Shown here: positions 744 through 23,854 of the stretch, piece after piece
Layout: each line of letters starts with the position of its first letter
Position numbering within the stretch: position 1 is the first letter of the stretch
Origin: Treponemataceae bacterium
GTDB taxonomy: Bacteria; Spirochaetota; Spirochaetia; Treponematales; Rectinemataceae
Length of the DNA: 64,000 nucleotides
Assembly: GCA_963678065.2 (NCBI GenBank)
Contig: CAXXVZ010000003.1
Span: forward strand, 1,792,001 to 1,856,000
Reading direction: 5' to 3'
Made by a program: the position numbers and the translations under genes
Notes under the pieces: model-generated
Told to the model about the DNA's origin: nothing
Database searches by the model: none
The model's input: the letters and a program-made list of their open reading frames with translations, nothing else

Positions 744-3335
744 TTATTTTGCCGCTGCATAGAAAATCGAGTTGAATAACAACTTGAATGTCCCGTGAGT
801 TTGACCGCGATGCTGCACACGCATACCAATTAGTATTGCACGACCATTGCCATAGCAATACTCAACAAGGTTTGCCTTGCCCTGGATATACTCAGGCCCC
901 ATCAGCCAGCCGGACATCAGGGGATTTCTGTCTGCAGGGTAAGTCGCAAGCACCTTCGCATTAGAGCCCGTAACGTCAAAAGTCGGGCTCTGTACGAAAT
1001 ATGCCCCAAACTTCTCATCCATACCGAAGGTCACAGGGCTCGTTTTGTCTACTATTTTAGCATCAAGAACTGAACCGGGGCAGTAGAATTTACTGCTGTC
1101 TACTCCTGACAGCACATTTTTAACTGGCGCATCCAATATGGTTGTCGCGAAGTCAAAGATGCTGTCGCACAGGATTATCGTGCCGCCGGCATTAACGAAC
1201 TCCTTGAGGTTAGCAAGGCCTTCATCTCCTACACCACCTGTATACTCATCTGGGTATGTACCGGCAGCCAGGCCCTTCTTGAGACTATCCGTCGAAGTAT
1301 CGGGTAAAACAATCGCATCATATTTATCTATTAATTTGCCCTCTTTGATGTCAGCATCGCGCATAAAAGTATAAGGGATTTCGAACTTATCGAATACCAT
1401 CCTCGTCCAGCCTGCGTCTGCATTGCCGCCCCAATTCTCATATATACCTACCCTCGGATTTGAAAGCGTTGTCATCCTGGAGGTCGGAGTATAAGGCATT
1501 GGATAGAAGGTAGTGGAGTATTTGGAGGCAATATCTGCAAGCTTTGCTGTCAAACCATCCTGTGAAAGAACAATTGTTGTTCCTGCAGGAAACTCTATGC
1601 CTCCAATTACTTCGGGATCCATGAGCCATTTTAGCTTAAATCCAGCGGCAAGCAGTTTGCTGCGCACTGTAGCGCTGTTGTTTGCCTCAGGTCTGAATGC
1701 ATAACCATAACCTGCAGATCCTTTAACGATTGCCCCAGGTACTGGCTTGAAAACTTTTACGAGCTCAAGATTTGCATCAAACGGCTTATCGACTTTTATG
1801 CATTCGACGCCCATCTCCATCGGAAGAGTCCAGCCTGCTACATCATATGGAGCCTCAGCAGGGCCCCCAGTATACTGTAACCTGTTGGGATAGACTTGTT
1901 TATCAAGCAAGGCCATTACGTTGGGCCTGTATTGTTGTGCTGCCAGGATAACATACGTTCCTTCCGGGTATGGCTTACCGTCCGCCACGAAGGGCGCAGT
2001 CGCTCTATGGATCTCTGTACCTTGGAAGTTTAAGATCTCCAGCATCCAATTGAGAGTGGCAGGGTCAGATGGGTCGGCAGGCAGGATAAAAGCAGAGGGA
2101 GACTCAGTAAGCCCCTTGCGGATGGCATCCTGGCCCATTTTGACGAAATTACTGACGAAATCCTCTTTAAGCTTGGAAAGGGTTTTAGCATAAGAATATA
2201 TGACGGATTCGGGATATGCCACAACATCCTCAAATGTCCATAGACCACCTTTCCAAGGTTCAGTAAATGTCTGTGTGAATGTCTGGGCATTTTCAAGGCC
2301 TCTAGTTTTGCCAGTAAGCTTCTCAAATGGTATATCTAGTGACGTTGCGATTTTGGCACTCGCGGTTTCAGTAAGAAGACCTACCATATTATGGTAGTAA
2401 GGACCACTCCTCATGCCTCCGTGCCACCACGTATCATACACAGCATCTGTTACGACGCCTGTCATGCCCTTAGCTGAAAGATCTGTTGTCGCTACCCCTC
2501 CCAGAGTCGTTATTTCCCTAAATATTATCGGCGGTATTTCAGGGTTTGGAGGATCAAAGAAAGGAGGCACAAACAACCTTGCGCCATTAGAGCCCATCTG
2601 GTGTATATCATATACGACTTCAGGGAACCACTCTGTATAGAGGACCTCGCCTACGTTCCTGCTCTCCGACAAGTTAAACATAAACCAGTCGCGGTTATCA
2701 TCATGGCCTACATAGTAATGATATAGGTAAGGGGGATTGCTTCCTTCATACTTTGTACCCAGGGTCTGTTTATACCAGTTTACAGTCATCACATGACCAT
2801 CAGGATTCAACGAAGGGACAAACAGCAATATCACATTATCAAGAATTTTTTCTAGATCCTTATCCTCGGTGGAAGCGTAGGTGTAAATGGCATTTAATAC
2901 GGCATGAAGGCCACCTATTTCTGTTGAGTGTATTGAAGCACCTACCAACATGACTGCCTTTGCTTCCGACTTTAGCGCTCTAAGATCCTTTTCAGACAGC
3001 CCCCGAGGATCTGCAAGCTTACTCTGTACCTGTTTGTAATAATCAAGGTTTGCTATATTATCCTCAGAGCTTACGATTGCCATGATCTCGCGGTCGCCAA
3101 GAGTAGTGGAGCCAATATCCTCGTATACTACCCTCTTTGACTCCTTATCAAGCAACTGCAGATAGTTCTTGATATCCGGCCAGGTACACAAGTTCTTACT
3201 AGTGCCAGGCTTGAACCCAAAAAAAGCACTCGGAGATGTTAATTTTACATCCTCCGCGAATACCGCACTGCCGATAAAAGCCTCGGCAATGAGCAGCAAT
3301 CCTAAAAAGACTGCTGATAACCTCTTTCCTTTCAT
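744..3335 (-). CDS. Secreted M14-family zinc carboxypeptidase with C-terminal glutamine-amidotransferase-like domain
   Basis: 863 aa; signal peptide; HSTE zinc motif, NPDG, DDNRD, DIHQMG; RBS AGGAGG upstream; visibly lower GC than flanking genes. Confidence 0.85.
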   Translation of the reverse strand: MKGKRLSAVFLGLLLIAEAFIGSAVFAEDVKLTSPSAFFGFKPGTSKNLCTWPDIKNYLQLLDKESKRVVYEDIGSTTLGDREIMAIVSSEDNIANLDYYKQVQSKLADPRGLSEKDLRALKSEAKAVMLVGASIHSTEIGGLHAVLNAIYTYASTEDKDLEKILDNVILLFVPSLNPDGHVMTVNWYKQTLGTKYEGSNPPYLYHYYVGHDDNRDWFMFNLSESRNVGEVLYTEWFPEVVYDIHQMGSNGARLFVPPFFDPPNPEIPPIIFREITTLGGVATTDLSAKGMTGVVTDAVYDTWWHGGMRSGPYYHNMVGLLTETASAKIATSLDIPFEKLTGKTRGLENAQTFTQTFTEPWKGGLWTFEDVVAYPESVIYSYAKTLSKLKEDFVSNFVKMGQDAIRKGLTESPSAFILPADPSDPATLNWMLEILNFQGTEIHRATAPFVADGKPYPEGTYVILAAQQYRPNVMALLDKQVYPNRLQYTGGPAEAPYDVAGWTLPMEMGVECIKVDKPFDANLELVKVFKPVPGAIVKGSAGYGYAFRPEANNSATVRSKLLAAGFKLKWLMDPEVIGGIEFPAGTTIVLSQDGLTAKLADIASKYSTTFYPMPYTPTSRMTTLSNPRVGIYENWGGNADAGWTRMVFDKFEIPYTFMRDADIKEGKLIDKYDAIVLPDTSTDSLKKGLAAGTYPDEYTGGVGDEGLANLKEFVNAGGTIILCDSIFDFATTILDAPVKNVLSGVDSSKFYCPGSVLDAKIVDKTSPVTFGMDEKFGAYFVQSPTFDVTGSNAKVLATYPADRNPLMSGWLMGPEYIQGKANLVEYCYGNGRAILIGMRVQHRGQTHGTFKLLFNSIFYAAAK

Positions 3336-8031: not shown

Positions 8032-8063
8032 AAAAGGGCTGCCTTGATCGGCAGCCCTTTTTT
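8032..8063 (+). terminator. Intrinsic terminator (possibly bidirectional)
   Basis: AAAAGGGCTGCC-TTGATC-GGCAGCCCTTTTTT. Confidence 0.8.
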
Positions 8064-8183
8064 ATTGCCCGTCGGACAATCGATTTTCCATACCCTTCCG
8101 CGTTGTCACAGAAATCGGCGCCGAATCAACGACTTCGCCGCAGAGCTTTCGGGTATGAAACCCGCCTGCGAATCCGGGCAATC

Positions 8184-8870
8184 TCAACCTTCCAGATCCG
8201 TTCCATGCTTCCCGCGTTCCCGTTCCCGCAAGCTCTGGATGAAGGATTGCATTGCGCTACCGGCCATGTCTTTGCACCCGAGCCCGAAAGCCAGCGCCAG
8301 TCCGAAAGCGATGGCGCCAAGCACCATCTGGAAGAGTGAACTGATGACTGTTTTGCCGAAACCCATCTGTTCGAAGGCTAGCGAGACGACAAGAATGTTC
8401 CCGAGATACTTGATCGCCTTGACGATGATGCCCGTGTTCGGTATCGCCGCGTTCCTCGCGATGGTCATCACGAAATTCGCGAAAAAGGTGACGACGACGA
8501 CACCCGTGATTACGATGAACAGTGCGGCCATCAGACTGGGAATGACCGATAGCATCTGCGCGGACAGGGCGTTCACGACAGCTATATCGAGCATTTTCGC
8601 GATCTGGAACAGGGAGACGACCACTATGAGCCAGAAAACAAGGACGCTGACCAATCGGGAAGGGGAATAGTCCACACTCCCCTTCCGCAGGAACTCCGTG
8701 ATTCCCATCTTTTCGCTCAGCCTGTCGAATCGCAGGATCTTGAGCAGACTGAGGGTAAGAAACCGCAGGAGCGCCGCACCGATCCAGCCCGCGGCGAGGG
8801 CGACCGGCGCCCGCAAAACGATGGGAAGATCCTTCCAGAATCCGGAGAGGGAGTCGATAATTCCATTCAT
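8184..8870 (-). CDS. CmpX-like/MscS TM-helix-repeat membrane protein
   Basis: 228 aa hydrophobic; FDRLSEKMGITEFLRKG and ALAFGLGCKD motifs; no MscS cytoplasmic domain. Confidence 0.75.
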   Translation of the reverse strand: MNGIIDSLSGFWKDLPIVLRAPVALAAGWIGAALLRFLTLSLLKILRFDRLSEKMGITEFLRKGSVDYSPSRLVSVLVFWLIVVVSLFQIAKMLDIAVVNALSAQMLSVIPSLMAALFIVITGVVVVTFFANFVMTIARNAAIPNTGIIVKAIKYLGNILVVSLAFEQMGFGKTVISSLFQMVLGAIAFGLALAFGLGCKDMAGSAMQSFIQSLRERERGKHGTDLEG

Positions 8871-8892
8871 GGTACTACCTCCACTAGAGAGT

Positions 8893-10044
8893 TCAGTCTG
8901 CTTCCGTTACGAGCACATGTATCTGCTTGACCGAGAGACCGGCCAATCCAAGACTTTCGACTGTCCGCCCGCATGCGCGGTAATCCGTCCCGTGCATGAG
9001 AGAACCTAGTTCGATAATCATGTCGATGACGGGAGTCCGCACCCCGAGCATTCCTCCGATGGATGAGATCGGCACGAGACTCATGGGAACATCCTCCGAT
9101 ATGTAGCGGTGGGCTATCGTCTGCGGCGCCTTGATGCCCCGATAACTCTTCGTGGCACGGATCGCCTGGCAGAGATCTTCGCCCGGGGAATCATAGCTGA
9201 GATAGAGCCATTCCCTGGCCGAAACAGAGCGCACACCGAGGGCACGGGCCACTGCCAGGCGCTCCTCGTCGATTTTTTCGAGCACCTTGGCCACCGAGGG
9301 GGTGATGCCCTGAAGGTAGTACTCGAAATTGCCGCCCGTTTCCTCGATCCAACCCGCGTTGAGGATGGTCAGGGCGGGGTGGAATACCGCGCCGATATTC
9401 TCCATGCTCGTCGAAAGGACATTGCCGCCCGCTGAAAATTGCGGGTAGGAATTCTCCAGCACGCCGAGAACGTCGGGCGTGCGGAACGAGGGGAGAGCCG
9501 CAACAGGCACAGCGTTCTTGATCCGGAAGATGTGTCCGGTATGGCGGGAAGTCCGTCGCGACGCGTAGATGAAGGTCTGTGCCTCGGCTATGACGGGCCG
9601 CGCCACACAGCCATTTTCCCGAAGAACCTGCCGCAGCTCCAAGGCACCTCCGGTCCGCCCCGGATTGAGGACGACGATCTGGCCGTCCCGAAGGTGCTTT
9701 GCCATGAGCACGGCGAGCGGCCTGTGGGCCGTCGAAGGCGTTACGACCATTATGACATCGGCCCCCGAAACCGCGGCTCCGATGTCGGAGGTTGCGAGAG
9801 CCACAGGCCCGAAGCCTTTCACCGCCCCATCGACTTCGATACCTCTGTGCCAGCGGATCCCGGCCAGATGCTCGTCCGTGCGGTTGTACAGGTTGACGCG
9901 GAATCCCATAAGCCCCAGGTGCCCCGCCATCGCGACGCCACCGTTGCCCGCGCCGATCACACAGTACACCGCGTCCTTCCCCTTGTCCCGCGTTTCGCGC
10001 AGGATCGATTTCAGCCTTGTGTCGACTACAGATTCCCTTTCCAT
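8893..10044 (-). CDS. NAD/NADP-dependent octopine/nopaline (opine) dehydrogenase family protein
   Basis: GAGNGG Rossmann motif, LNPGRTGGALE, NIGAVFHP, RYISEDVPMSLVP; ATG 10044 after GGAGG. Confidence 0.9.
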   Translation of the reverse strand: MERESVVDTRLKSILRETRDKGKDAVYCVIGAGNGGVAMAGHLGLMGFRVNLYNRTDEHLAGIRWHRGIEVDGAVKGFGPVALATSDIGAAVSGADVIMVVTPSTAHRPLAVLMAKHLRDGQIVVLNPGRTGGALELRQVLRENGCVARPVIAEAQTFIYASRRTSRHTGHIFRIKNAVPVAALPSFRTPDVLGVLENSYPQFSAGGNVLSTSMENIGAVFHPALTILNAGWIEETGGNFEYYLQGITPSVAKVLEKIDEERLAVARALGVRSVSAREWLYLSYDSPGEDLCQAIRATKSYRGIKAPQTIAHRYISEDVPMSLVPISSIGGMLGVRTPVIDMIIELGSLMHGTDYRACGRTVESLGLAGLSVKQIHVLVTEAD

Positions 10045-11903
10045 ATTGGCCCTCCCGCAATTCGGGCGATCCGCTCCGCCGCGCCGATCGGTTGACCGTA
10101 TTCGTCCACGACACGGATCGATCCGGCGATAAGCCGGGTCTTCAGACTGCATGCCCTTCTGAACTCGTCGCGACACTCGGAAAGATATGGCAACGCGAAA
10201 AATCCGCGCGCGAGTATTTCGTACATACCACGCGGGGTGTAGGGATCCGGGATGGTCGACTCGATAGCCCCTATCATCATCGTCGCCTCGGACATGAGGA
10301 ACTCCTGTCGGGTCGCAACTTCCGGATTCGTGGCCATGTCGTCGACGCTGCCGTTTTTCCGCATCCGCCTGTACTCCGACAGAGCATGACGCGTGATTCT
10401 GACGCTCTCCTCCACAACGGAAGGATCGGCCAGTCTGAAGCCCTCCGAGTAACTCACGACGTGGATGATCTGGGGACTCGTGTCGTCATGCGGCTCGATA
10501 TCATCCATCAGGGCGGTGACCTCCGCGAGCTGTATTCTCGCCCTCTCGGGATCCGGCGAGAAATAATCCAAGCCCCCTCGCGGCTGCACAAACACGCGGA
10601 ACGACGCATCCTTGAGGCCTCGCACGAGCCTGAGGAGTACCCGCGCCTTAGCGAGATCCTGCACGCCCCAGGTGCTCTTGGGCGTGTTCAGCATGATCTG
10701 CAGGATGAGCGTCCTGATGCCGGAGAGTTTGGCGGCCTTCGCCGCGATGTAGCCCGAAACGATGTAGCTCACATCGTCGGCGCCGCGGAACGCAAAATGA
10801 TGTGGCACGTTCGGCTCGAGCGGTTTCCCCGTCGAGGCTATATACCGCATTGTCGCAAAATGCTCCTCGAGATTCTGTCGGATGGAATTGTCGCCCCGTC
10901 CGTCGAGTCTGCAGAACCACCAGAACGACAGCGCGTGCCACGCGATGTCCAGGCGCTCTTCGTACATCCGGGCGAGCGCAGGAACATTCTTGGTGCCCGC
11001 GTAGGTCCGTACGAACATTGGCCGCGCCGCTCTCCATACGGCTTCGAACTCGCCGGGATCGTTGATCGGCACGCCACCTCCGTCCGGAGCGTCCCGCCAA
11101 TCCTCGCCGAACCTCGACTGGCTCAGCTGGCTGGTCCCTATCGAAAGAATATCGAGAAGACCGCCCGAAGCGAGCGTCCTGGTCCAGTCGAAAAAAAGAT
11201 CGACAGCTTCCTTCCTGCGGGGCAGATAGGGACCGACATGGGCGCGCATGAGGGGCGGCAATCCGCGCGCGGCACCGTACAGCGCCCTTTTCACTACACT
11301 TTCCCCACGGCATCCGTAGCCGGGGCTTTGCCTCCTGTCCACGGATCCGACACCGAGGTACTCGCGCTTGCGCACCAGCTCGCGGGCGAACTGCCTCCTC
11401 GCCTCATCGTATACGGCGCCGTGAACAAGCGATGATGGCATACACGTCCACGGCACTCCCAGCATTTCCAGCGTCTCAGAGGGCGTCTCGTCTCCGGAGA
11501 AGACCGCGTCGACGACAGGATAGCGCTGCTTTATCACGGCGCAGGCTTCCGGCAGACCCGCAAAATACAGATAGCGTACCGGACCTCCCCGATGCGCCGT
11601 CAGGTTGGCCGTTTCCAGAAAATCGACGAAGGCTCCGAAGAGACGGACAGCGTCGGAAGGATCGAGGCGGTAACTGAATCCGACCGCGCTTATGCCTGTC
11701 CCCGATATCCAGGAGCAAAGCAGTCTTCCGGCCGCCGGATTGCCCGGCTCCTCGGCCATCGTGCAGATTTCGCGGTCGGCGATGCGGCACTCAATACCGC
11801 ACTCGTCGAGAAGCTGTGTGATGGAAACGATTCCCAATGTATGTACATCGTGGACAGGATGAATGAAGCCGAACACCCTGGATTCGCTATGGTCTTTTAT
11901 CAT
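10026..11903 (-). CDS. Cobalamin-binding domain protein with large C-terminal putative catalytic (TIM-barrel-like) domain, function unknown
   Basis: N-terminal DxHxxG (HDVHTLG) and GFSYRL Rossmann elements; C-terminal GGGVP, RTYAGT, LDGR, NVPHHFAFR, IMLNTP, IIHVVSYSE; ATG 11903 after GGAGG. Confidence 0.8.
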   Translation of the reverse strand: MIKDHSESRVFGFIHPVHDVHTLGIVSITQLLDECGIECRIADREICTMAEEPGNPAAGRLLCSWISGTGISAVGFSYRLDPSDAVRLFGAFVDFLETANLTAHRGGPVRYLYFAGLPEACAVIKQRYPVVDAVFSGDETPSETLEMLGVPWTCMPSSLVHGAVYDEARRQFARELVRKREYLGVGSVDRRQSPGYGCRGESVVKRALYGAARGLPPLMRAHVGPYLPRRKEAVDLFFDWTRTLASGGLLDILSIGTSQLSQSRFGEDWRDAPDGGGVPINDPGEFEAVWRAARPMFVRTYAGTKNVPALARMYEERLDIAWHALSFWWFCRLDGRGDNSIRQNLEEHFATMRYIASTGKPLEPNVPHHFAFRGADDVSYIVSGYIAAKAAKLSGIRTLILQIMLNTPKSTWGVQDLAKARVLLRLVRGLKDASFRVFVQPRGGLDYFSPDPERARIQLAEVTALMDDIEPHDDTSPQIIHVVSYSEGFRLADPSVVEESVRITRHALSEYRRMRKNGSVDDMATNPEVATRQEFLMSEATMMIGAIESTIPDPYTPRGMYEILARGFFALPYLSECRDEFRRACSLKTRLIAGSIRVVDEYGQPIGAAERIARIAGGPIWKGNL

Positions 11904-11962
11904 GAGGCCTCCAGTGCCACCACTGACATCCGGACAAGCCACAGTCCGGATAAACCGGAGTA

Positions 11963-13093
11963 TCAGCCGGTGATTGTGTCGTAGAACGGAGAAGGAATGA
12001 CATCGCGCATGCCGTCCGGTATGAACAGCGTTTTGCTTCCCTCCCGGATGCACCGACAGAGGGCCGCGAGGACGATGGCGTTGAGATAGGCTGTCTCGTC
12101 GAGCCCGGCATGTCGGGCGCAGGATTCGAACCAGGGATCGGGAACCATGGGCTGACCATTGATCTCTATGGCCTGGAAGCGGCCTTTGGCGAATGCCATG
12201 TCGCAGCGCGAATAGTCGCGGACCCGGGCAGCCGCGAATGCCCTTCCGGCGAAGGCTACGACCCTCTCACGGGTTTCCGGATCCTCAATCGCTCGTGCGA
12301 GCGTTCTGTTCCCTTCCTTGTCTCCGTTTGTGATCAGGGGCAGTCTCTTCGGGGTCTTGAAAACGAGTTCGGCGGGCATCAGCAGTATCCTTCCGGGCAT
12401 GCCGATCATGGATACCGTATATTCCTGGAAATCGGAATATCCGCCCAGATACTCCTCGACGAGGACTTCATCGAATTCGTCCAGAACCACGCGAATCCTC
12501 TCCGAGAGTTCGTCTGGGGTATACACAACTGACTTGTCACAGATGCCGCGCGAGTTGCCCTCGGCGGCGGGCTTGACGATGCAGGGGAATGGAGGAAAAG
12601 ATGCCGGTTCCGGCATTTCCCGGAATTCTTTCGCCTTCACGCGGAGAAAAGCCGGGGTAGTCACAGCTTCCCGCAGCCATCGCTCTTTCATGTCCGTCTT
12701 GGAGAGAGCGAGGCGGATCGTATCGGACGATGATCCCACAAAGGGTATCTCCATGCCGACGAGAAGGGAATGGACATCGGTCGCTGAAGGATCCGATTTC
12801 CGGAGAGATGGGCCTTCATTGAGATGGCCGGGTGTCGGGGGCGGGGCATACTCTCCAGGCAGGCTGTCAAGCGCGCTGAAGACGATATCGGGCTTATCTG
12901 TTTCAAGAATGGAAAGCAGTTCACATACATTTTTTACCTGGTGATGGATGGCGGAACATCCGCCGCGTACGAGCGCTGAGGTGAAACGCCCGAAGCGTAC
13001 CTCGTCCGCACGGTTACGGACCTCGTCTGTCCACAGAAGACTGATGACCGCTACGTCCGGCGGGTGCATCAGGAAGCAGGTTGACTTCGCCAA
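11963..13093 (-). CDS. ATP-grasp ligase, D-Ala-D-Ala ligase-like
   Basis: PDIVF, IPFVGS, PCIVKPAAEGNSRGI, VLVEEYL, RDYSRCD, IEIN motifs; TTG start after GGAGG. Confidence 0.85.
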   Translation of the reverse strand: MAKSTCFLMHPPDVAVISLLWTDEVRNRADEVRFGRFTSALVRGGCSAIHHQVKNVCELLSILETDKPDIVFSALDSLPGEYAPPPTPGHLNEGPSLRKSDPSATDVHSLLVGMEIPFVGSSSDTIRLALSKTDMKERWLREAVTTPAFLRVKAKEFREMPEPASFPPFPCIVKPAAEGNSRGICDKSVVYTPDELSERIRVVLDEFDEVLVEEYLGGYSDFQEYTVSMIGMPGRILLMPAELVFKTPKRLPLITNGDKEGNRTLARAIEDPETRERVVAFAGRAFAAARVRDYSRCDMAFAKGRFQAIEINGQPMVPDPWFESCARHAGLDETAYLNAIVLAALCRCIREGSKTLFIPDGMRDVIPSPFYDTITG

Positions 13094-13175: not shown

Positions 13176-13211
13176 AAAAACGCCGACAGGAATTTCTTTC
13201 CCTGTCGGCGG
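13176..13211 (-). terminator. Intrinsic terminator after thrA
   Basis: CGCCGACAGG...CCTGTCGGCG stem with an A-run on the plus strand (U-tract on minus). Confidence 0.65.
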
Positions 13212-18254: not shown

Positions 18255-19385
18255 TCAGCCGAGTACTGTCAATAGCACTCCGGCCGCCACAGCAGAACCG
18301 ATGACGCCGGCCACGTTTGGTCCCATAGCGTGCATAAGGAGGTAGTTGGTCGGATCAGTTTCCTGACCGACGACCTGAGAGACGCGCGCGGCCATCGGAA
18401 CTGCGGAGACGCCCGCCGATCCGATGAGAGGATTCACCTTGCCGCCCGTGAGCCAATACATGAGTTTGCCGAGCAGGACGCCCGCGGCCGTTCCGCAGGA
18501 GAAGGCGAAGAGCCCGAGGAAGATGATCTTGAGGGTTTCGGGGGCGAGGAACCGTGCCGCGTTGGCTGTCGCGCCCACCGAGGTGCCGAGGAAGATGGTC
18601 AGGATGTTGATGAGGGCGTTCTGTGCCGTGTCGGAGAGGCGTCCCGTGACCCCGGTCTCCCTGAAGAGGTTGCCGAGCATGAGGGATCCGATGAGAGGCA
18701 GGGCTGGGGGAAGCAGCATGCCGACAAACACCGTGACGAGGATCGGAAACACGACCTTTTCGTTCTTGGAGACATTCCTGATCATGCCCATGTTGACCGA
18801 GCGCTCCTTCTTTGTGGTGAGGGCGCGCATGATGGGGGGCTGGATGATGGGAACGAGAGCCATGTAGGAGTATGCCGCGATCGCGATGGGACCGAGGAGT
18901 TCAGGCTTCAGCCTCGTCGTGAGGAAAATGGCTGTCGGGCCGTCCGCTCCGCCGATGATGCCGATGCTGCCTGCCGCCTTGAGGTCAAAGCCGAGATACG
19001 TGGCGAGAACGAAGGGGATGAAGATGCCGAACTGGGCTGCAGCTCCAAGGAGGAGGCTCATGGGGTTGGCGATGAGGGGACCGAAGTCCGTCATCGCGCC
19101 CACACCCAAGAAGATCAGTGGCGGATAGATACCGAGTTTGACTCCCTGGTAGAGGTAATAGATGAGCCCGCCTGGCTGACCGTCCATCGGCCCGTCCGTG
19201 ATACCGGATATGGGCAGGTTGGCGAGCAGCATGCCGAAGGCGATCGGTACCATGAGGAGGGGTTCGATCCCTTTGAACATGCCCAGATAGAGCAGGACAA
19301 AGGAAATTCCCAACATGATGATCTGGCCGCCGGTGATGTTGAGAAATCCCGTAGTGCCGATGAAATTGACTATAGAATCCCACAT
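18255..19385 (-). CDS. mmdB: Na+-translocating decarboxylase beta subunit
   Basis: [50 protein letters not shown]. Confidence 0.93.
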
Positions 19386-19397
19386 GGGGTACGCTCC

Positions 19398-19805
19398 TTA
19401 CACGAGGTCGACGAGGGGGTCTCCCGTGTTGACCGAGGCGCCGGAGTTCGTCCTGAGGGCCGCGACCGTTCCGGCCTGTGTGGCCACGATTTCGTTCTCC
19501 ATCTTCATCGCTTCCAGGATGAGGAGGACGTCTCCCCGCCCGACCTGCTGTCCCACGGAGACTTTGTACGAGAGTACGGTTCCGGGCATGGGGGCCTTGA
19601 CAGTCGTGGCGCCGGCTACGCCGGCGGTGGGGACGGCCTGGGGCGCGACTGGGGCAGGCGCCGCCGCGATGCCCGCTGCTGGCGCTGGTGTGGCAACTGC
19701 TGCGGGCATAACGGCTACGGCCGGAGCGGCACTCACAGCTCCGCCCACTTCCTCGACGGCGACATCGAAACTCTGTCCATTCACGGTCACTTTATAGCGT
19801 TTCAT
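19398..19805 (-). CDS. mmdC: Biotin carboxyl carrier (decarboxylase gamma subunit)
   Basis: Ala/Pro-rich linker, APMPG, LEAMKMENEI. Confidence 0.92.
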   Translation of the reverse strand: MKRYKVTVNGQSFDVAVEEVGGAVSAAPAVAVMPAAVATPAPAAGIAAAPAPVAPQAVPTAGVAGATTVKAPMPGTVLSYKVSVGQQVGRGDVLLILEAMKMENEIVATQAGTVAALRTNSGASVNTGDPLVDLV

Positions 19806-19831
19806 ATCGATCTCTCTCCTTGTATCGGTCG

Positions 19832-20194
19832 TTACCGGGCAAGCCGGTCGATGTGTCCCCATGCCGGGGTATTGAAGCCGCCGGAGCTCTGGGCTGGTGT
19901 TACGGACGCGATCCTGAATGCGCTTGCTCCGGGTCCTCGCGCGGCGACGATCGCGGCAGTTATCGCGGCGACGATCTCGGCCGGAACAACGGCTGTGCCT
20001 GCGGTGTGAGCAGTCCGCGTGGCCGTCTGAGGCGCCGTTGGTTGCGCGGCCGATGACGAAACCTTCTCACTCACCGTGCCAGGAAGTTTGATTCCGAACA
20101 TGAGCGGGAAGAGCTTGAGAACCAGGGCCATGATGATGAGCGCGATAAAAACCGTGCCCATGCCTAGAACAGTGATAAGCCAGGGGTTTGTCAT
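19832..20194 (-). CDS. mmdD: OadG-family membrane anchor (decarboxylase delta subunit)
   Basis: LGMGTVFIALII N-terminal TM; EIVAAITAAI; position between mmdA and mmdC. Confidence 0.82.
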   Translation of the reverse strand: MTNPWLITVLGMGTVFIALIIMALVLKLFPLMFGIKLPGTVSEKVSSSAAQPTAPQTATRTAHTAGTAVVPAEIVAAITAAIVAARGPGASAFRIASVTPAQSSGGFNTPAWGHIDRLAR

Positions 20195-20207
20195 GTTCCC
20201 GCTCCCG

Positions 20208-21752
20208 TCAGACAGGGAAGTTCCCGTGCTTGCGGCTGGGCCGGCTCTGGCGCTTGCCGAGGAGCATGCCGAGCGCGGAGCAGAGCCGGGCCCTGGTGGT
20301 GGCCGGATCGATCACGTCGTCGACGTAACCGCGCACGGCGGCCTTGTAGGGATTCGCGAAACTGGTCTTGTACTCCTGGATCTTCTGAGCGCGCATCGCG
20401 GCGGGATCGGCCGCCTCGTCGATGTCCTTCTTGAAGATGATGTTGGCCGCGCCGTCCGGACCCATAACCGCGATCTCCGCCGAGGGCCAGGCGAGGACCA
20501 TGTCGGCGCCGAGGTGGCGGGAGCACATAGCGATGTAGGCTCCGCCGTATGCCTTGCGCAGGATGACCGTGAGCTTGGGAACGGTCGCCTCGGAGTAGGC
20601 GTACAGGAGCTTGGCTCCGTGACGGATGACGCCGCCGTGCTCCTGCCCGACGCCGGGCAAGTAGCCCGCCGTGTCGGTGAGGGTCACGAGAGGAATATTG
20701 AAGGCGTCGCAGAAGCGGATGAAGCGCGAAGCCTTGTCGGAGGCATTGATGTCGAGGACGCCGGCCATGACCTTGGGCTGGTTGGCGATGACACCGACAG
20801 AGCGGCCATTAAGGCGGGCGAAGCAGGTCACGATGTTCTTCGCGTACATAGCCTGGGTCTCCAGGAAGTCGCCGCCATCGACCACGCGCTTGATCACTTC
20901 GCGCACGTCGTAGGGTTTGTTCGGGGAGTCGGGCATGATCTCGGCGAGCTCGGCGTCAGCGCGGGCAGGATCGTCGCCAGTCGCGACGACAGGCGGGTCT
21001 TCGAGGTTGTTCTGGGGCAGGAAGGAGAGAAGCTTCTTGATCCCCTCGATCGTCGAATCCTCGTCCGGATACATGAAGTGCGCGACACCCGAGACTTCGG
21101 AGTGAACGGTCGCGCCTCCGAGGGCCTCACCCGAGACATCCTCGCCGGTGACGGCCTTGATGACCTGAGGCCCGGTGATGAACATGTTGGCGGTCTTGTC
21201 CGTCATGAAGACGAAGTCGGTGAGTGCGGGCGAATACACGGCGCCGCCCGCGCAGGGCCCCATGATGACGGAAATCTGGGGGATCACGCCCGAGGACAGA
21301 GTGTTGCGGTAGAAGATGTCGCCGTAGCCGGAGAGAGCGTCGACACCTTCCTGGATGCGGGCTCCGCCCGAATCGTTGATGCCGATGCAGGGGCAGCCGA
21401 CCTTGGAGGCCATGTCCATGGCCTTGCATATCTTGGCGGCGTGCATTTCGCCTAAGGAACCGCCGATGACAGTGAAGTCCTGCGCAAAAACGTAGACGGT
21501 CCGGCCGGAAATGCTTCCGTAGCCGATGACGACGCCTTCGCCCGGGGCCTCGACATCGGCCATCCCGAGATCGGAGCAGCGGTGCGCGACGAAGGGATCT
21601 ATCTCCACGAAGCTTCCTTCGTCGAGAAGAGCCTCGATCCTCTCACGGGCCGTCTTCTTGCCCTTCTCATGCTGAGCCGCCACCCTCTTGGGACCGCCGC
21701 CCGCGAGTACTTTTTTGCGGCGCTCTTCCAGTGCCTTTAGCTTCTCTTCCAT
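20208..21752 (-). CDS. mmdA: Methylmalonyl-CoA decarboxylase alpha (acyl-CoA carboxyltransferase)
   Basis: QDFTVIGGSLG, DSGGARIQEG, GPCAGGAVYSPA, RKAYGGAY, KHGNFPV. Confidence 0.92.
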   Translation of the reverse strand: MEEKLKALEERRKKVLAGGGPKRVAAQHEKGKKTARERIEALLDEGSFVEIDPFVAHRCSDLGMADVEAPGEGVVIGYGSISGRTVYVFAQDFTVIGGSLGEMHAAKICKAMDMASKVGCPCIGINDSGGARIQEGVDALSGYGDIFYRNTLSSGVIPQISVIMGPCAGGAVYSPALTDFVFMTDKTANMFITGPQVIKAVTGEDVSGEALGGATVHSEVSGVAHFMYPDEDSTIEGIKKLLSFLPQNNLEDPPVVATGDDPARADAELAEIMPDSPNKPYDVREVIKRVVDGGDFLETQAMYAKNIVTCFARLNGRSVGVIANQPKVMAGVLDINASDKASRFIRFCDAFNIPLVTLTDTAGYLPGVGQEHGGVIRHGAKLLYAYSEATVPKLTVILRKAYGGAYIAMCSRHLGADMVLAWPSAEIAVMGPDGAANIIFKKDIDEAADPAAMRAQKIQEYKTSFANPYKAAVRGYVDDVIDPATTRARLCSALGMLLGKRQSRPSRKHGNFPV

Positions 21753-21882
21753 ATATGAAACCGTCCTTGTTGGATCGATGGGGATCCCGAATTATCTGGT
21801 CCTTCAGTCTCTCTGGCTGCAATTTCGCCGGCGTGCCGTCGGATTCCACCAGACAGTCCCGAAAAGCCAGCCAGCAGCTCCC

Positions 21883-22293
21883 TCAGTCGCCCGCACGCTC
21901 GCAGAGTTCGACGAGAACGCCGCCCGTGGCCTTGGGGTGGATGAAGGCGATCTTTGCGCCGCCGGCGCCGTAGCGGGGCTTCTCGTCGATGAGGCGCACT
22001 CCCTTCTCCTTGAGTTCGGCGAGAGCTTCCTCAATATTGACGACGCGGAAGGCGATGTGCTGGAAGCCCTGCCCCTTCGCGGCGATGAACTTTCCGATAG
22101 GCCCCTCGGGGTCGGTGGATTCGAGGAGCTCGATCTCGGTGCCTCCGACGGGCAGGAAAGAGGTCGAGACCTTCTGTTCAGCCACGGTCTCCGAGCCGTG
22201 AAGGGAGAGCCCGAGAATGCCTTCGTACAGGGCGAGAGCATCGGCGGTTTTCTCGACGGCGATGCCGATGTGGTCAACCTTCAGAATCTTCAT
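21883..22293 (-). CDS. mce: Methylmalonyl-CoA epimerase
   Basis: VDHIGIAV, IELLE, QHIAFRV, FIHPKATGGVLVELCE. Confidence 0.93.
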   Translation of the reverse strand: MKILKVDHIGIAVEKTADALALYEGILGLSLHGSETVAEQKVSTSFLPVGGTEIELLESTDPEGPIGKFIAAKGQGFQHIAFRVVNIEEALAELKEKGVRLIDEKPRYGAGGAKIAFIHPKATGGVLVELCERAGD

Positions 22294-23432
22294 TGTCTTC
22301 CTCCCGGAAAGGCCGCGGCGAACAGTCCGTCCGCGGCATCGTATACATCCATCCGCCTTCCGACAACGGCTTCGACGAGCCGGTCTTCGGCTTCGCGCTC
22401 TTCGGGGCCTTCGAGGGCCGAAAAAAGCCGGCGCGTCAGTATGGCGCGCAGCTCCGCCCTGACCGACTCCGAACGCCGGCGAAGCAGTTCCCCGCTCGCC
22501 TCGATGGCGGCGCGGTGGCGGATGCAGGCATCGACGAGTTCCACGACGCCCTGTCCCATCTCCGCGCTCATCTTGAGGACGGGCGGCAACTCCTCCTGCA
22601 TGGACATACCGGCGGTCGATCTGGCGGGTTCGACCCCATCCATGTCGCCGCTGTCGGGAATACTGTCCTCTGAGGCGGATGCCCCGGAATTGCCGTTCTC
22701 GCGGGAATTTGCGGCTCCATGATGCCCCACGAAGGTACTGTGTGTCGAGAGTGTGTCGGGGAAGGTTTTCGGCGCGCGGCCCGCTCCGAGCATTGCCGCC
22801 GTCTCGAGCATGGCGCGTATCTCGCGCACGACTCTGTCGGCCCCATCCTTGTCGGCCTTGTTCACGGCGAAGATGTCGCCGATCTCCATGATGCCGGCCT
22901 TGATGACCTGGATGTCGTCGCCGAGTCCAGGCACGGAGACGAGGACGACGGTGTCCGCGATCTTCACGATGTCGACCTCGGACTGCCCGACGCCGACGGT
23001 CTCGACGATGATGTAGTCGTAACCAGCCGCGTCCAGAACCTTGCACGCGGCCGTCGTGGCGCGGGATACGCCGCCCAGGGCTCCCCGGGAGGCGAGGCTC
23101 CGGATGAAGACGCCCGGATCGGTCGCGTGGGACTGCATGCGGAGCCTGTCGCCGAGGATGGCCCCGCCGGTGAAAGGACTCGAGGGATCGACGGCGAGGA
23201 CGGCGACCGTGGCTCCGCGCTCCCTCAGTATGCCTATCATCTTGTCGGTGAGCGTGCTTTTGCCGGAGCCCGGCGGCCCGGTGATGCCGATGATGTGGGC
23301 TCCTCCGCCCTCCGTTCCGATGGAGCGAAGTATATCGACGCCGGCGGGCTCCCCGTTCTCGAGCCAGGAAATGACACGGGCGGCGGCGCGGACATCCCCC
23401 GCAAGGAGGCGCCCGCGCAGTGCCGTATCCAA
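22290..23432 (-). CDS. meaB: Methylmalonyl-CoA mutase-associated GTPase
   Basis: GITGPPGSGKST, AVDPSSPFTGGAILGDRLRM, VETVGVGQSE, VNKAD. Confidence 0.93.
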   Translation of the reverse strand: MDTALRGRLLAGDVRAAARVISWLENGEPAGVDILRSIGTEGGGAHIIGITGPPGSGKSTLTDKMIGILRERGATVAVLAVDPSSPFTGGAILGDRLRMQSHATDPGVFIRSLASRGALGGVSRATTAACKVLDAAGYDYIIVETVGVGQSEVDIVKIADTVVLVSVPGLGDDIQVIKAGIMEIGDIFAVNKADKDGADRVVREIRAMLETAAMLGAGRAPKTFPDTLSTHSTFVGHHGAANSRENGNSGASASEDSIPDSGDMDGVEPARSTAGMSMQEELPPVLKMSAEMGQGVVELVDACIRHRAAIEASGELLRRRSESVRAELRAILTRRLFSALEGPEEREAEDRLVEAVVGRRMDVYDAADGLFAAAFPGGRQ

Positions 23433-23443
23433 GGTGCTAATGA

Positions 23444-23842
23444 TCAGCCCCGCTTGAGGTTGTTCTTGATGTAATCGACGATGACCGTCGTCGGGGTGCC
23501 CGGCCCGAAGACCTCGGCTATGCCCTTCGACTTGAGGAAGGGAATGTCGTCCTCGGGGATGACGCCGCCGCCGAAGACAAGGACGTCGTCGACACCCTTC
23601 TCGGCCAGAAGCTCGGTGACTCTCGGAAAGAGGTGATTGTGGGCGCCCGAGAGGATGGACATGCCGATGACGTCGGCGTCCTCCTGGATGGCAGCCGCGA
23701 CGATCTGTTCGGGAGTCTGGCGCAGTCCCGTGTAGATGACTTCCATGCCGGCGTCGCGCAGGGCGCGGGCGATGACCTTGGCGCCCCTGTCGTGACCGTC
23801 GAGCCCCGGTTTGGCTACGATAACGCGTATTTTCCGTTCCAT
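23444..23842 (-). CDS. Methylmalonyl-CoA mutase B12-binding subunit
   Basis: [27 protein letters not shown]. Confidence 0.93.
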
Positions 23843-23854
23843 TGGGTTCTCCTG

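Follow-up and report, generated by a model that had tools for sequence, protein, structure and literature searches.

Four genes packed on the minus strand at positions 8184 to 13,093 of a 64,000-nucleotide stretch of a Treponemataceae bacterium genome (contig CAXXVZ010000003.1, positions 1,792,001 to 1,856,000; hereafter the window) include a real, conserved, and uncharacterized module, in which a predicted adenosylcobalamin radical isomerase resembling glutamate mutase (gene B) adjoins an opine dehydrogenase (ODH; gene C) predicted to prefer acidic amino acids. The association of B with C has already been published, and its chemistry is directly testable; new here are gene D, the active-site mapping, and a set of uptake/peptidase loci that resemble a matching catabolic route. 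The reading that we favor, at slightly under an even chance, is that B and C, with the ligase encoded by gene A, make a rearranged and amidated N-(1-carboxyethyl) acidic amino acid for osmotic or K+ balance; its substrate, step order, product, and physiological role are what we infer. The features of the locus are as follows.

Gene A, 11963..13093, minus strand: TTG start, 376 residues, ATP-grasp ligase with the Ddl fold.
Gene B, 10026..11903, minus strand: ATG start, 625 residues, predicted adenosylcobalamin radical mutase.
Gene C, 8893..10044, minus strand: 383 residues, ODH predicted to be of the acid-preferring subclass.
Gene D, 8184..8870, minus strand: 228 residues, all-helical membrane protein, probably of the PF05552 (MscS-type transmembrane helix) kind.
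Upstream hairpin, 13181..13210, minus strand: intrinsic-terminator-like hairpin with T-run (-22.3 kcal/mol) that ends thrA and isolates the cluster upstream.
Downstream hairpin, ~8033..8062, no strand assigned: 12 to 13 bp (-23.3 kcal/mol), between gene D and a convergent TRAP permease.

Genes B and C were adjacent in 76 of 80 loci of close relatives and in 114 of 120 distant ones (190/200 together), with several of the misses at contig ends. The conserved core is this pair only, and genes A and D are accessories. The gene B family was present in 21 of 41 relatives, in 79 of 401 genomes of one other phylum (that of G236), and in 20 of 251 of a second (that of G237); many bacterial phyla have the core pair. 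An earlier account made from the DNA letters alone (the sequence-only reading) was partly supported by these and the following results: the layout, the gene families, and the co-conservation of B with C held up, whereas the proposed methylation, the analogy to staphylopine, and a fixed four-gene pathway did not. That account knew of no characterized pathway with this combination, and we found none either, but the combination had not gone unnoticed. In the excerpts available, Zhang et al. (2009; PMC2667541) predict a B12-dependent family in 11 genomes of Firmicutes, Chloroflexi, and Thermotogae and call for experiments. Like the genes described here, that family has an N-terminal B12 domain, always lies beside PF02317, and has Ddl-like or asparagine synthase genes nearby; the same passages propose no reaction, do not assign a mutase, and mention neither a riboswitch nor GlmL nor a membrane gene, and gene B is equated with the family by their description, not by alignment (PMC2667541). 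No characterization of the family was found in the open literature, subscription papers being outside the coverage.

The predicted product of gene B is a single chain with a B12-binding domain (residues ~8 to 150) followed by a GlmE-like TIM barrel (~194 to 614). It gave no Pfam or NCBIfam match above cut-off, PF06368 included, and 2731 homologues were recovered among 8000 candidates scored, the closest from spirochaetes. A single-sequence search of the PDB found nothing, and a profile of the broad family retrieved domain-level B12-binding chains only (best E 1.8e-5). The DxHxxG motif expected of class I mutases is present as D19-V-H21-T-L-G24, and its histidine was kept in 75 of the 75 close rows having a residue there and in 120 of 120 distant ones. 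The distant clade carried CxHxxG, with Cys replacing the Asp (alignment A3). PF02310 exceeded its cut-off in 5 of 32 distant relatives, and PF06368 barely passed in 2 of 32. MutL/GlmL was fused to the mutase in 3 of 32 scanned proteins, while one other was fused to an ATP-grasp domain; MutL/GlmL, fused or flanking, occurred in 4 of 120 distant loci, and one of these passes the GlmL cut-off. Apparent tandem mutase copies at L203/L205 turned out to be GlmL genes. In L074 and L078 (Rikenellaceae), a mutase without ODH lay beside methyltransferase genes.

The structure model of gene B (predicted local distance difference test score, pLDDT, 86.6) had glutamate mutase E (1cb7_B) as its top Foldseek match (E 3.6e-11). 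With the structural aligner VIA, the model matched GlmE with Z 29.9 (root-mean-square deviation 3.3, 378 residues aligned), lysine 5,6-aminomutase (LAM) with 28.5, ornithine 4,5-aminomutase (OAM) with 26.4, CoA mutases with 17 to 20, and the methionine synthase MetH with 14.6, half of the GlmE score. On this modeled fold, gene B is predicted to be an adenosylcobalamin radical isomerase of the glutamate-mutase-like kind. The sequence-only reading had offered rearrangement or methylation; the mutase fold is consistent with the former, while both the fold and the partners, which are those of a mutase, argue against the latter. That gene B is a corrinoid methyltransferase is scarcely credible and was rejected: taken by itself, its N-terminal domain matches both corrinoid proteins and MetH, and databases label relatives "methionine synthase", but the barrel reaches only Z ~14 against MetH with the GlmE-like fold closest, a glutamate equivalent to the adenosyl-binding residue of GlmE (E487) is conserved, and relatives have GlmL partners.

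The LAM and OAM scores bear on a different proposal, in which a pyruvate imine formed at C would replace pyridoxal phosphate (PLP) and B would shift the amino group, so that the product would be either a beta-amino acid or an N-(2-carboxyethyl) compound. Gene B has the barrel fold in common with these aminomutases, and the match is nearly as good as that to GlmE. The PLP-lysine insertion, seen 11 residues past the B12 histidine in the fetched LAM and OAM sequences, is theirs only: gene B has a four-residue gap there and Leu/Ala at the Lys column. The missing loop would suit a PLP-free enzyme, as would an aromatic residue at 330 and Ser/Ala302 at the places where aminomutases stack and bind PLP, in a register set by eye. 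Ser302 is not conserved, however, being Ala in 69 of 80 close loci, and an ODH that holds NAD(P)H would capture the imine by turning it into an opine. We know of no precedent for a PLP-free, imine-assisted aminomutase and regard this proposal as very improbable.

The active site was mapped by profile alignment (hhalign) of gene B to six GlmE sequences. GlmE E330, described in excerpts of its literature as the adenosyl-binding glutamate (PMC4413051), aligned with E487, which was invariant in 200 of 200 family members. The arginine claw of GlmE, given as R66/R100/R149 in the excerpted source (PMC10947579), was not kept in gene B; H222, Q262, and Y301 occur instead, all nearly invariant. The residues R220, Q262, R299, Y301, D334, R336, E363, N365, H368, R373, D377, R442, and H481 were likewise invariant in the 200 members, and H222 was found in 199. 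Since the close and distant clades are only ~25 to 30% identical to each other, this constancy points to one reaction, which would not be that of ordinary glutamate mutase. The replaced claw, together with invariant R220, R299, R336, R373, and R442, suggests a substrate that differs from free glutamate and is probably more carboxylated. Overall, gene B resembles the GlmS/GlmE plus GlmL system (1cb7) in its His-on B12 motif, TIM barrel, E330 equivalent, and GlmL in some relatives, and differs in being a single chain with the claw replaced, 14% identity, and an ODH partner; no methylaspartase was present among its annotated recurrent neighbors. A prediction of the complex of B with C scored 0.00 in two runs, which is evidence neither for nor against an interaction.

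Gene C matched PF02317 with 164 bits, confirming the opine dehydrogenase of the sequence-only reading as genuine. Its nearest structure was ArODH (1bg6, E 1.9e-74), and the three sequences matched among structures at E<=0.001 represented only ArODH and octopine dehydrogenase. R130 and G218 of gene C occupy the A111R and N198G positions of ArODH, the Arg111/Gly198 pair of acid-preferring mODHs. According to the excerpts available of Telek et al. (2024; PMC10787698), it is these two residues that shift ODH specificity in vitro to L-Asp/L-Glu plus pyruvate, and mODHs mostly prefer Asp over Glu, strongly favor pyruvate, and barely use 2-oxoglutarate. Among the ODHs neighboring a mutase, 180 of 181 have R130 and 180 of 182 have G218, and the Arg/Gly pair was retained even in the divergent octopine-type ODHs of three loci with fused mutases. 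Gene C also resembles the mODHs (PMC10787698, in part) and ArODH in the N-R-T/S cofactor loop and the His-Asp/Trp site, and the sequences are visibly alike; the measured activities are those of other members. It is predicted to be an acid-preferring ODH that uses Asp or Glu with pyruvate, and R55 suggests that NADPH is accepted.

This placement in the Arthrobacter/mODH class speaks against the likeness to staphylopine and pseudopaline synthesis that had been drawn from the sequence. A tricarboxylic iminodiacid would chelate metals, but an opine metallophore of the staphylopine type is highly improbable: the structure matches of gene C at E<=0.001 included no CntM type, no nicotianamine synthase (NAS) occurred among the four genes, and neither that enzyme nor a metal importer was present among the annotated recurrent neighbors (no NAS profile was run on the relatives). 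A zincophore survey mentions no B12 or mutase (PMC7438024), and the regulation observed in relatives is by cyclic di-AMP (c-di-AMP).

The preferences of the mODHs also bear on the order of steps. If the mutase came first, B would act on a free acid, turning L-Glu into 3-methylaspartate or 2-oxoglutarate into 3-methyl-oxaloacetate, after which C would cap the product as an opine, for the same purpose. The fold nearest glutamate mutase and the GlmL partners in relatives agree with this order, 3-methylaspartate is an analogue of the Asp that mODHs mostly favor over Glu, and an absence of the amine-binding Glu, if real, would be in keeping with a 2-oxo acid substrate. It is nevertheless unlikely, as replacement of all three claw arginines would be needless for an ordinary glutamate mutase, and mODHs barely accept 2-oxoglutarate while strongly favoring pyruvate.

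In the favored reading, C would act first, using NAD(P)H to couple pyruvate with L-glutamate or L-aspartate. B would then rearrange, by a radical mechanism, the skeleton of the resulting N-(1-carboxyethyl) amino acid. The most economical version would be a glutamate-mutase-like fragmentation and recombination, in which an N-alkyl-glycyl radical and acrylate would give N-(1-carboxyethyl)-3-methylaspartate. Gene A would turn one carboxylate into an amide, and gene D might tie the solute pool to membrane tension or release. By our own reasoning, the branched skeleton would shield the solute from central metabolism, as in beta-lysine and beta-glutamate.

Gene A matched PF07478 with 43.6 bits. The sequence-only reading had left room for an ordinary Ddl, but gene A scored 68 bits on TIGR01205, under the cut-off of 245.65 for D-Ala-D-Ala ligases, and the true Ddl of the same genome lies elsewhere (G000:C3:1041440, 319 bits on TIGR01205). 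Gene A is predicted to be an amide-forming ligase that acts on a solute, rather than a housekeeping Ddl. We counted ligase genes within 3.5 kb and on the same strand around the 80 close and 120 distant loci. ATP-grasp genes of several types were found at 25 close and 9 distant loci (34/200 overall) and AsnB-like genes at 21 and 35 (56/200), with both kinds together in a single locus. Ligases of two unrelated folds take turns beside the pair, and gene A is an exchangeable accessory. Among 50 AsnB-like open reading frames (ORFs), the N-terminal Cys was absent from 34, present in 13, and unclear in 3, so that many would use ammonia or an amine. One AsnB-like partner scored 149 bits as AsnB versus 70 as beta-lactam synthetase; that it is nearest AsnB points to an aspartyl-type carboxylate, and beta-lactam synthetase identity for a Cys-less partner was rejected as the weaker match. 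At L144 (8715-9776), L146, and L171, a D-glutamate cyclase-like gene (PF14336) lies between the mutase and the AsnB-like gene, which hints at lactam formation.

Regulation in the distant relatives points to osmotic balance, and the osmolyte option of the sequence-only reading is kept as the leading role. The c-di-AMP riboswitch (Rfam RF00379) was detected in 4 of 18 distant loci, directly upstream and on the operon strand. A profile made from those four matched in 29 of 120 distant loci, again upstream and on the operon strand, a count that includes the four seed loci by construction and one weak match (L226). The riboswitch also precedes operons that open with the ligase. The longest riboswitch-led operon (L205:981-8003) contains ODH, ATP-grasp, hotdog thioesterase, GlmL, second ODH, and mutase genes. 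AblA/AblB, which make N-acetyl-beta-lysine, and N-acetylglutaminylglutamine amide (NAGGN) clusters resemble the proposed pathway in combining radical rearrangement and amide formation to give a solute; AblA differs in being a radical SAM/PLP enzyme, and to our knowledge NAGGN clusters have no mutase and no ODH. Against the NAGGN amidotransferase profile, the AsnB-like partner scored 102 versus a cut-off of 570. The excerpts available of two riboswitch papers (PMC9337991, PMC10636490) state that c-di-AMP switches turn off K+ and osmolyte genes and that ablA was found under such a switch, so that a radical aminomutase which supplies the precursor of an osmolyte is already known under this control.

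Gene D scored 15 bits on PF05552, below the cut-off of 22, yet 30 of 30 Atlas matches carry PF05552 (score 0.96); on NF033912 it scored 58 bits (cut-off 100). Its hydropathy profile has ~5 hydrophobic segments, and its model is all-helical (pLDDT 78.5, predicted template modeling score 0.49). No PF00924 match and no MscS beta-domain were found in the sequence and model, respectively, which sets it apart from MscS channels proper. Gene D accompanies B and C in 43 of 80 close loci and in none of the 120 distant ones; two gene orders occur, and its carriers are spirochaetes, PVC-group bacteria, and Holophaga. Full MscS genes were found nearby (within 3.5 kb) at 10 of the 200 loci. These are raw counts over kin that are not independent, with no background comparison. 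Gene D possibly serves solute release or membrane-tension coupling.

Several observations weigh against the osmolyte reading. Among fully flanked loci, a ligase within 3.5 kb was lacking from 16 (of 45) in the close set and from 46 (of 74) in the distant set; amidation would therefore be optional, and we infer that amide formation is a repeatedly recruited tailoring step. Searches of the genome that contains the window (completeness 99.9%) returned neither GlmE nor GlmL. The residue map rests on a profile alignment of 83 to 87% probability, which is poor near GlmE E171, the glycyl amine binder; no conserved acid occurs at 322 to 331 of gene B, and invariant D334 and E363 are nearby. Either of these could act as the base, in which case free glutamate would be a possible substrate. 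Turnover of mODHs with Asp is low in the excerpted data (kcat 0.1-13 per s versus 861 for ArODH; PMC10787698), so the natural substrate may differ, for example as a close analogue. No Rfam riboswitch was found in the window or in the 8 close loci tested (0 of 8), and the profile matched 0 of 80 close loci; the osmotic link in the close clade thus rests on gene D and relatives. Cell-wall genes are also under c-di-AMP switches in the excerpted sources (PMC9337991, PMC10636490).

The last point would also suit an envelope building block, formed by ligation of the opine acid to peptidoglycan, to a polysaccharide, or to an amino sugar. A DegT aminotransferase gene adjoins the pair in five loci (L069, L080, L141, L168, and L170), some of them with glycosyltransferases, a flippase, or a separate ATP-grasp type and some inside polysaccharide clusters; there the pair was possibly recruited to surface polysaccharide. 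Alanine racemase-like genes occur in 3 of 80 loci, and gene A has the Ddl fold. N-Carboxyethyl amino acids are found in O-antigens. Such loci number only 5-6 of 200, however, most loci lack an envelope gene, and the genome has its own Ddl, which makes this explanation improbable for the cluster.

Mutases and ODHs are reversible, and the module could also run toward breakdown. The loci L218/L233, L219/L234, and L232 combine a GlmL-fused mutase and a divergent octopine-type ODH with a class-5 binding protein and further hold Opp-type ATP-binding cassette (ABC) genes, a GntR/UTRA regulator, and a C26 peptidase; they probably represent a catabolic version, with uptake and breakdown of an amidated form. 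For the present genome, catabolism would mean that B rearranges an opine from the environment and that C splits it by oxidation into pyruvate and an amino acid. Despite the three loci just described, we consider this quite unlikely here: the unit has an ATP-consuming ligase and no importer, the convergent TRAP genes recur in 0 of 80 related loci, and c-di-AMP control in relatives is ill-suited to nutrient use. A broader conjecture that we hold only tentatively, with less confidence than the osmolyte reading itself, joins both sets of loci. The B12 isomerase would act on an N-alkylated iminodiacid, with the carboxyethyl arm of the substrate or a pyruvate imine replacing the catalytic Glu or PLP, and the product would be a widespread osmolyte of anaerobes; producers would be marked by c-di-AMP switches or MscS-like partners and scavengers by an ABC importer, an amide hydrolase, and a GlmL-fused mutase.

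Few B12 isomerase reactions are known. The gene B family is common, its invariant active site marks it as isofunctional, and its members carry wrong labels, as methionine synthase or hypothetical proteins. The module gives a physiological context to the recently characterized Asp/Glu-specific ODHs and, for a question standing since 2009, offers an assay of two enzymes whose candidate substrates can be named. If the proposal is true, anaerobe physiology gains a compatible solute.

The layout described in the sequence-only reading was confirmed: the four genes are co-oriented, with a gap of 59 nucleotides between A and B, an overlap of 19 between B and C, and a gap of 22 between C and D, and GGAGG precedes all four start codons as a ribosome-binding site. 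The mechanical ORF start of gene B at 12053 was judged too long because homologues align from 11903. Hairpins were found on either side, as that reading had stated. The downstream one, missing from the terminator-scan list and read from the sequence and its folding, is probably a bidirectional terminator. The scan revealed no convincing minus-strand promoter; its sole promoter-like match was on the plus strand, below the shuffle mean. Two lake metatranscriptome runs contained short contig pieces within all four genes, including a 151-nucleotide piece (9984-10134) that spans the B/C boundary; these do not establish co-transcription, because the runs were chosen with this stretch and may contain DNA. 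The neighboring thrA and TRAP genes were dropped as cluster members, being present in 0 of 80 related loci. Genes for an Asp/Glu racemase, DAACS, kbl, and argG/H were also rejected: they recur in 11-12 of 81 loci confined to one spirochaete clade, the racemase is convergent, and synteny accounts for them.

The cluster genes had third-position GC contents of 0.67-0.74 versus 0.75-0.86 in neighbors, and recent transfer is not clearly signaled. In run X5, contigs of a near-identical organism diverge into other sequence at window positions 8179 and 13233; these breaks flank the cluster and hint that it was gained or lost as a unit. A further B12-binding domain in the window, near 23447-23854, belongs to an apparent methylmalonyl-CoA mutase cluster, and the host therefore probably handles the B12 cofactor. 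That cluster (18255-23854) contains biotin carboxyltransferase/decarboxylase, epimerase, and B12-binding-domain genes, all labeled by inspection. Elsewhere in the genome, a second, divergent ODH-like gene (G000:C3:2307586-2308581, 25% identity) adjoins genes labeled by inspection as a GntR regulator, a tripartite transporter, and an amidohydrolase, and a 1150-residue open frame (G000:C3:663369-665543) has two ATP-grasp-like matches. An M14 peptidase gene at window positions 744-3335 has 46% GC versus 56-64% in the adjacent genes.

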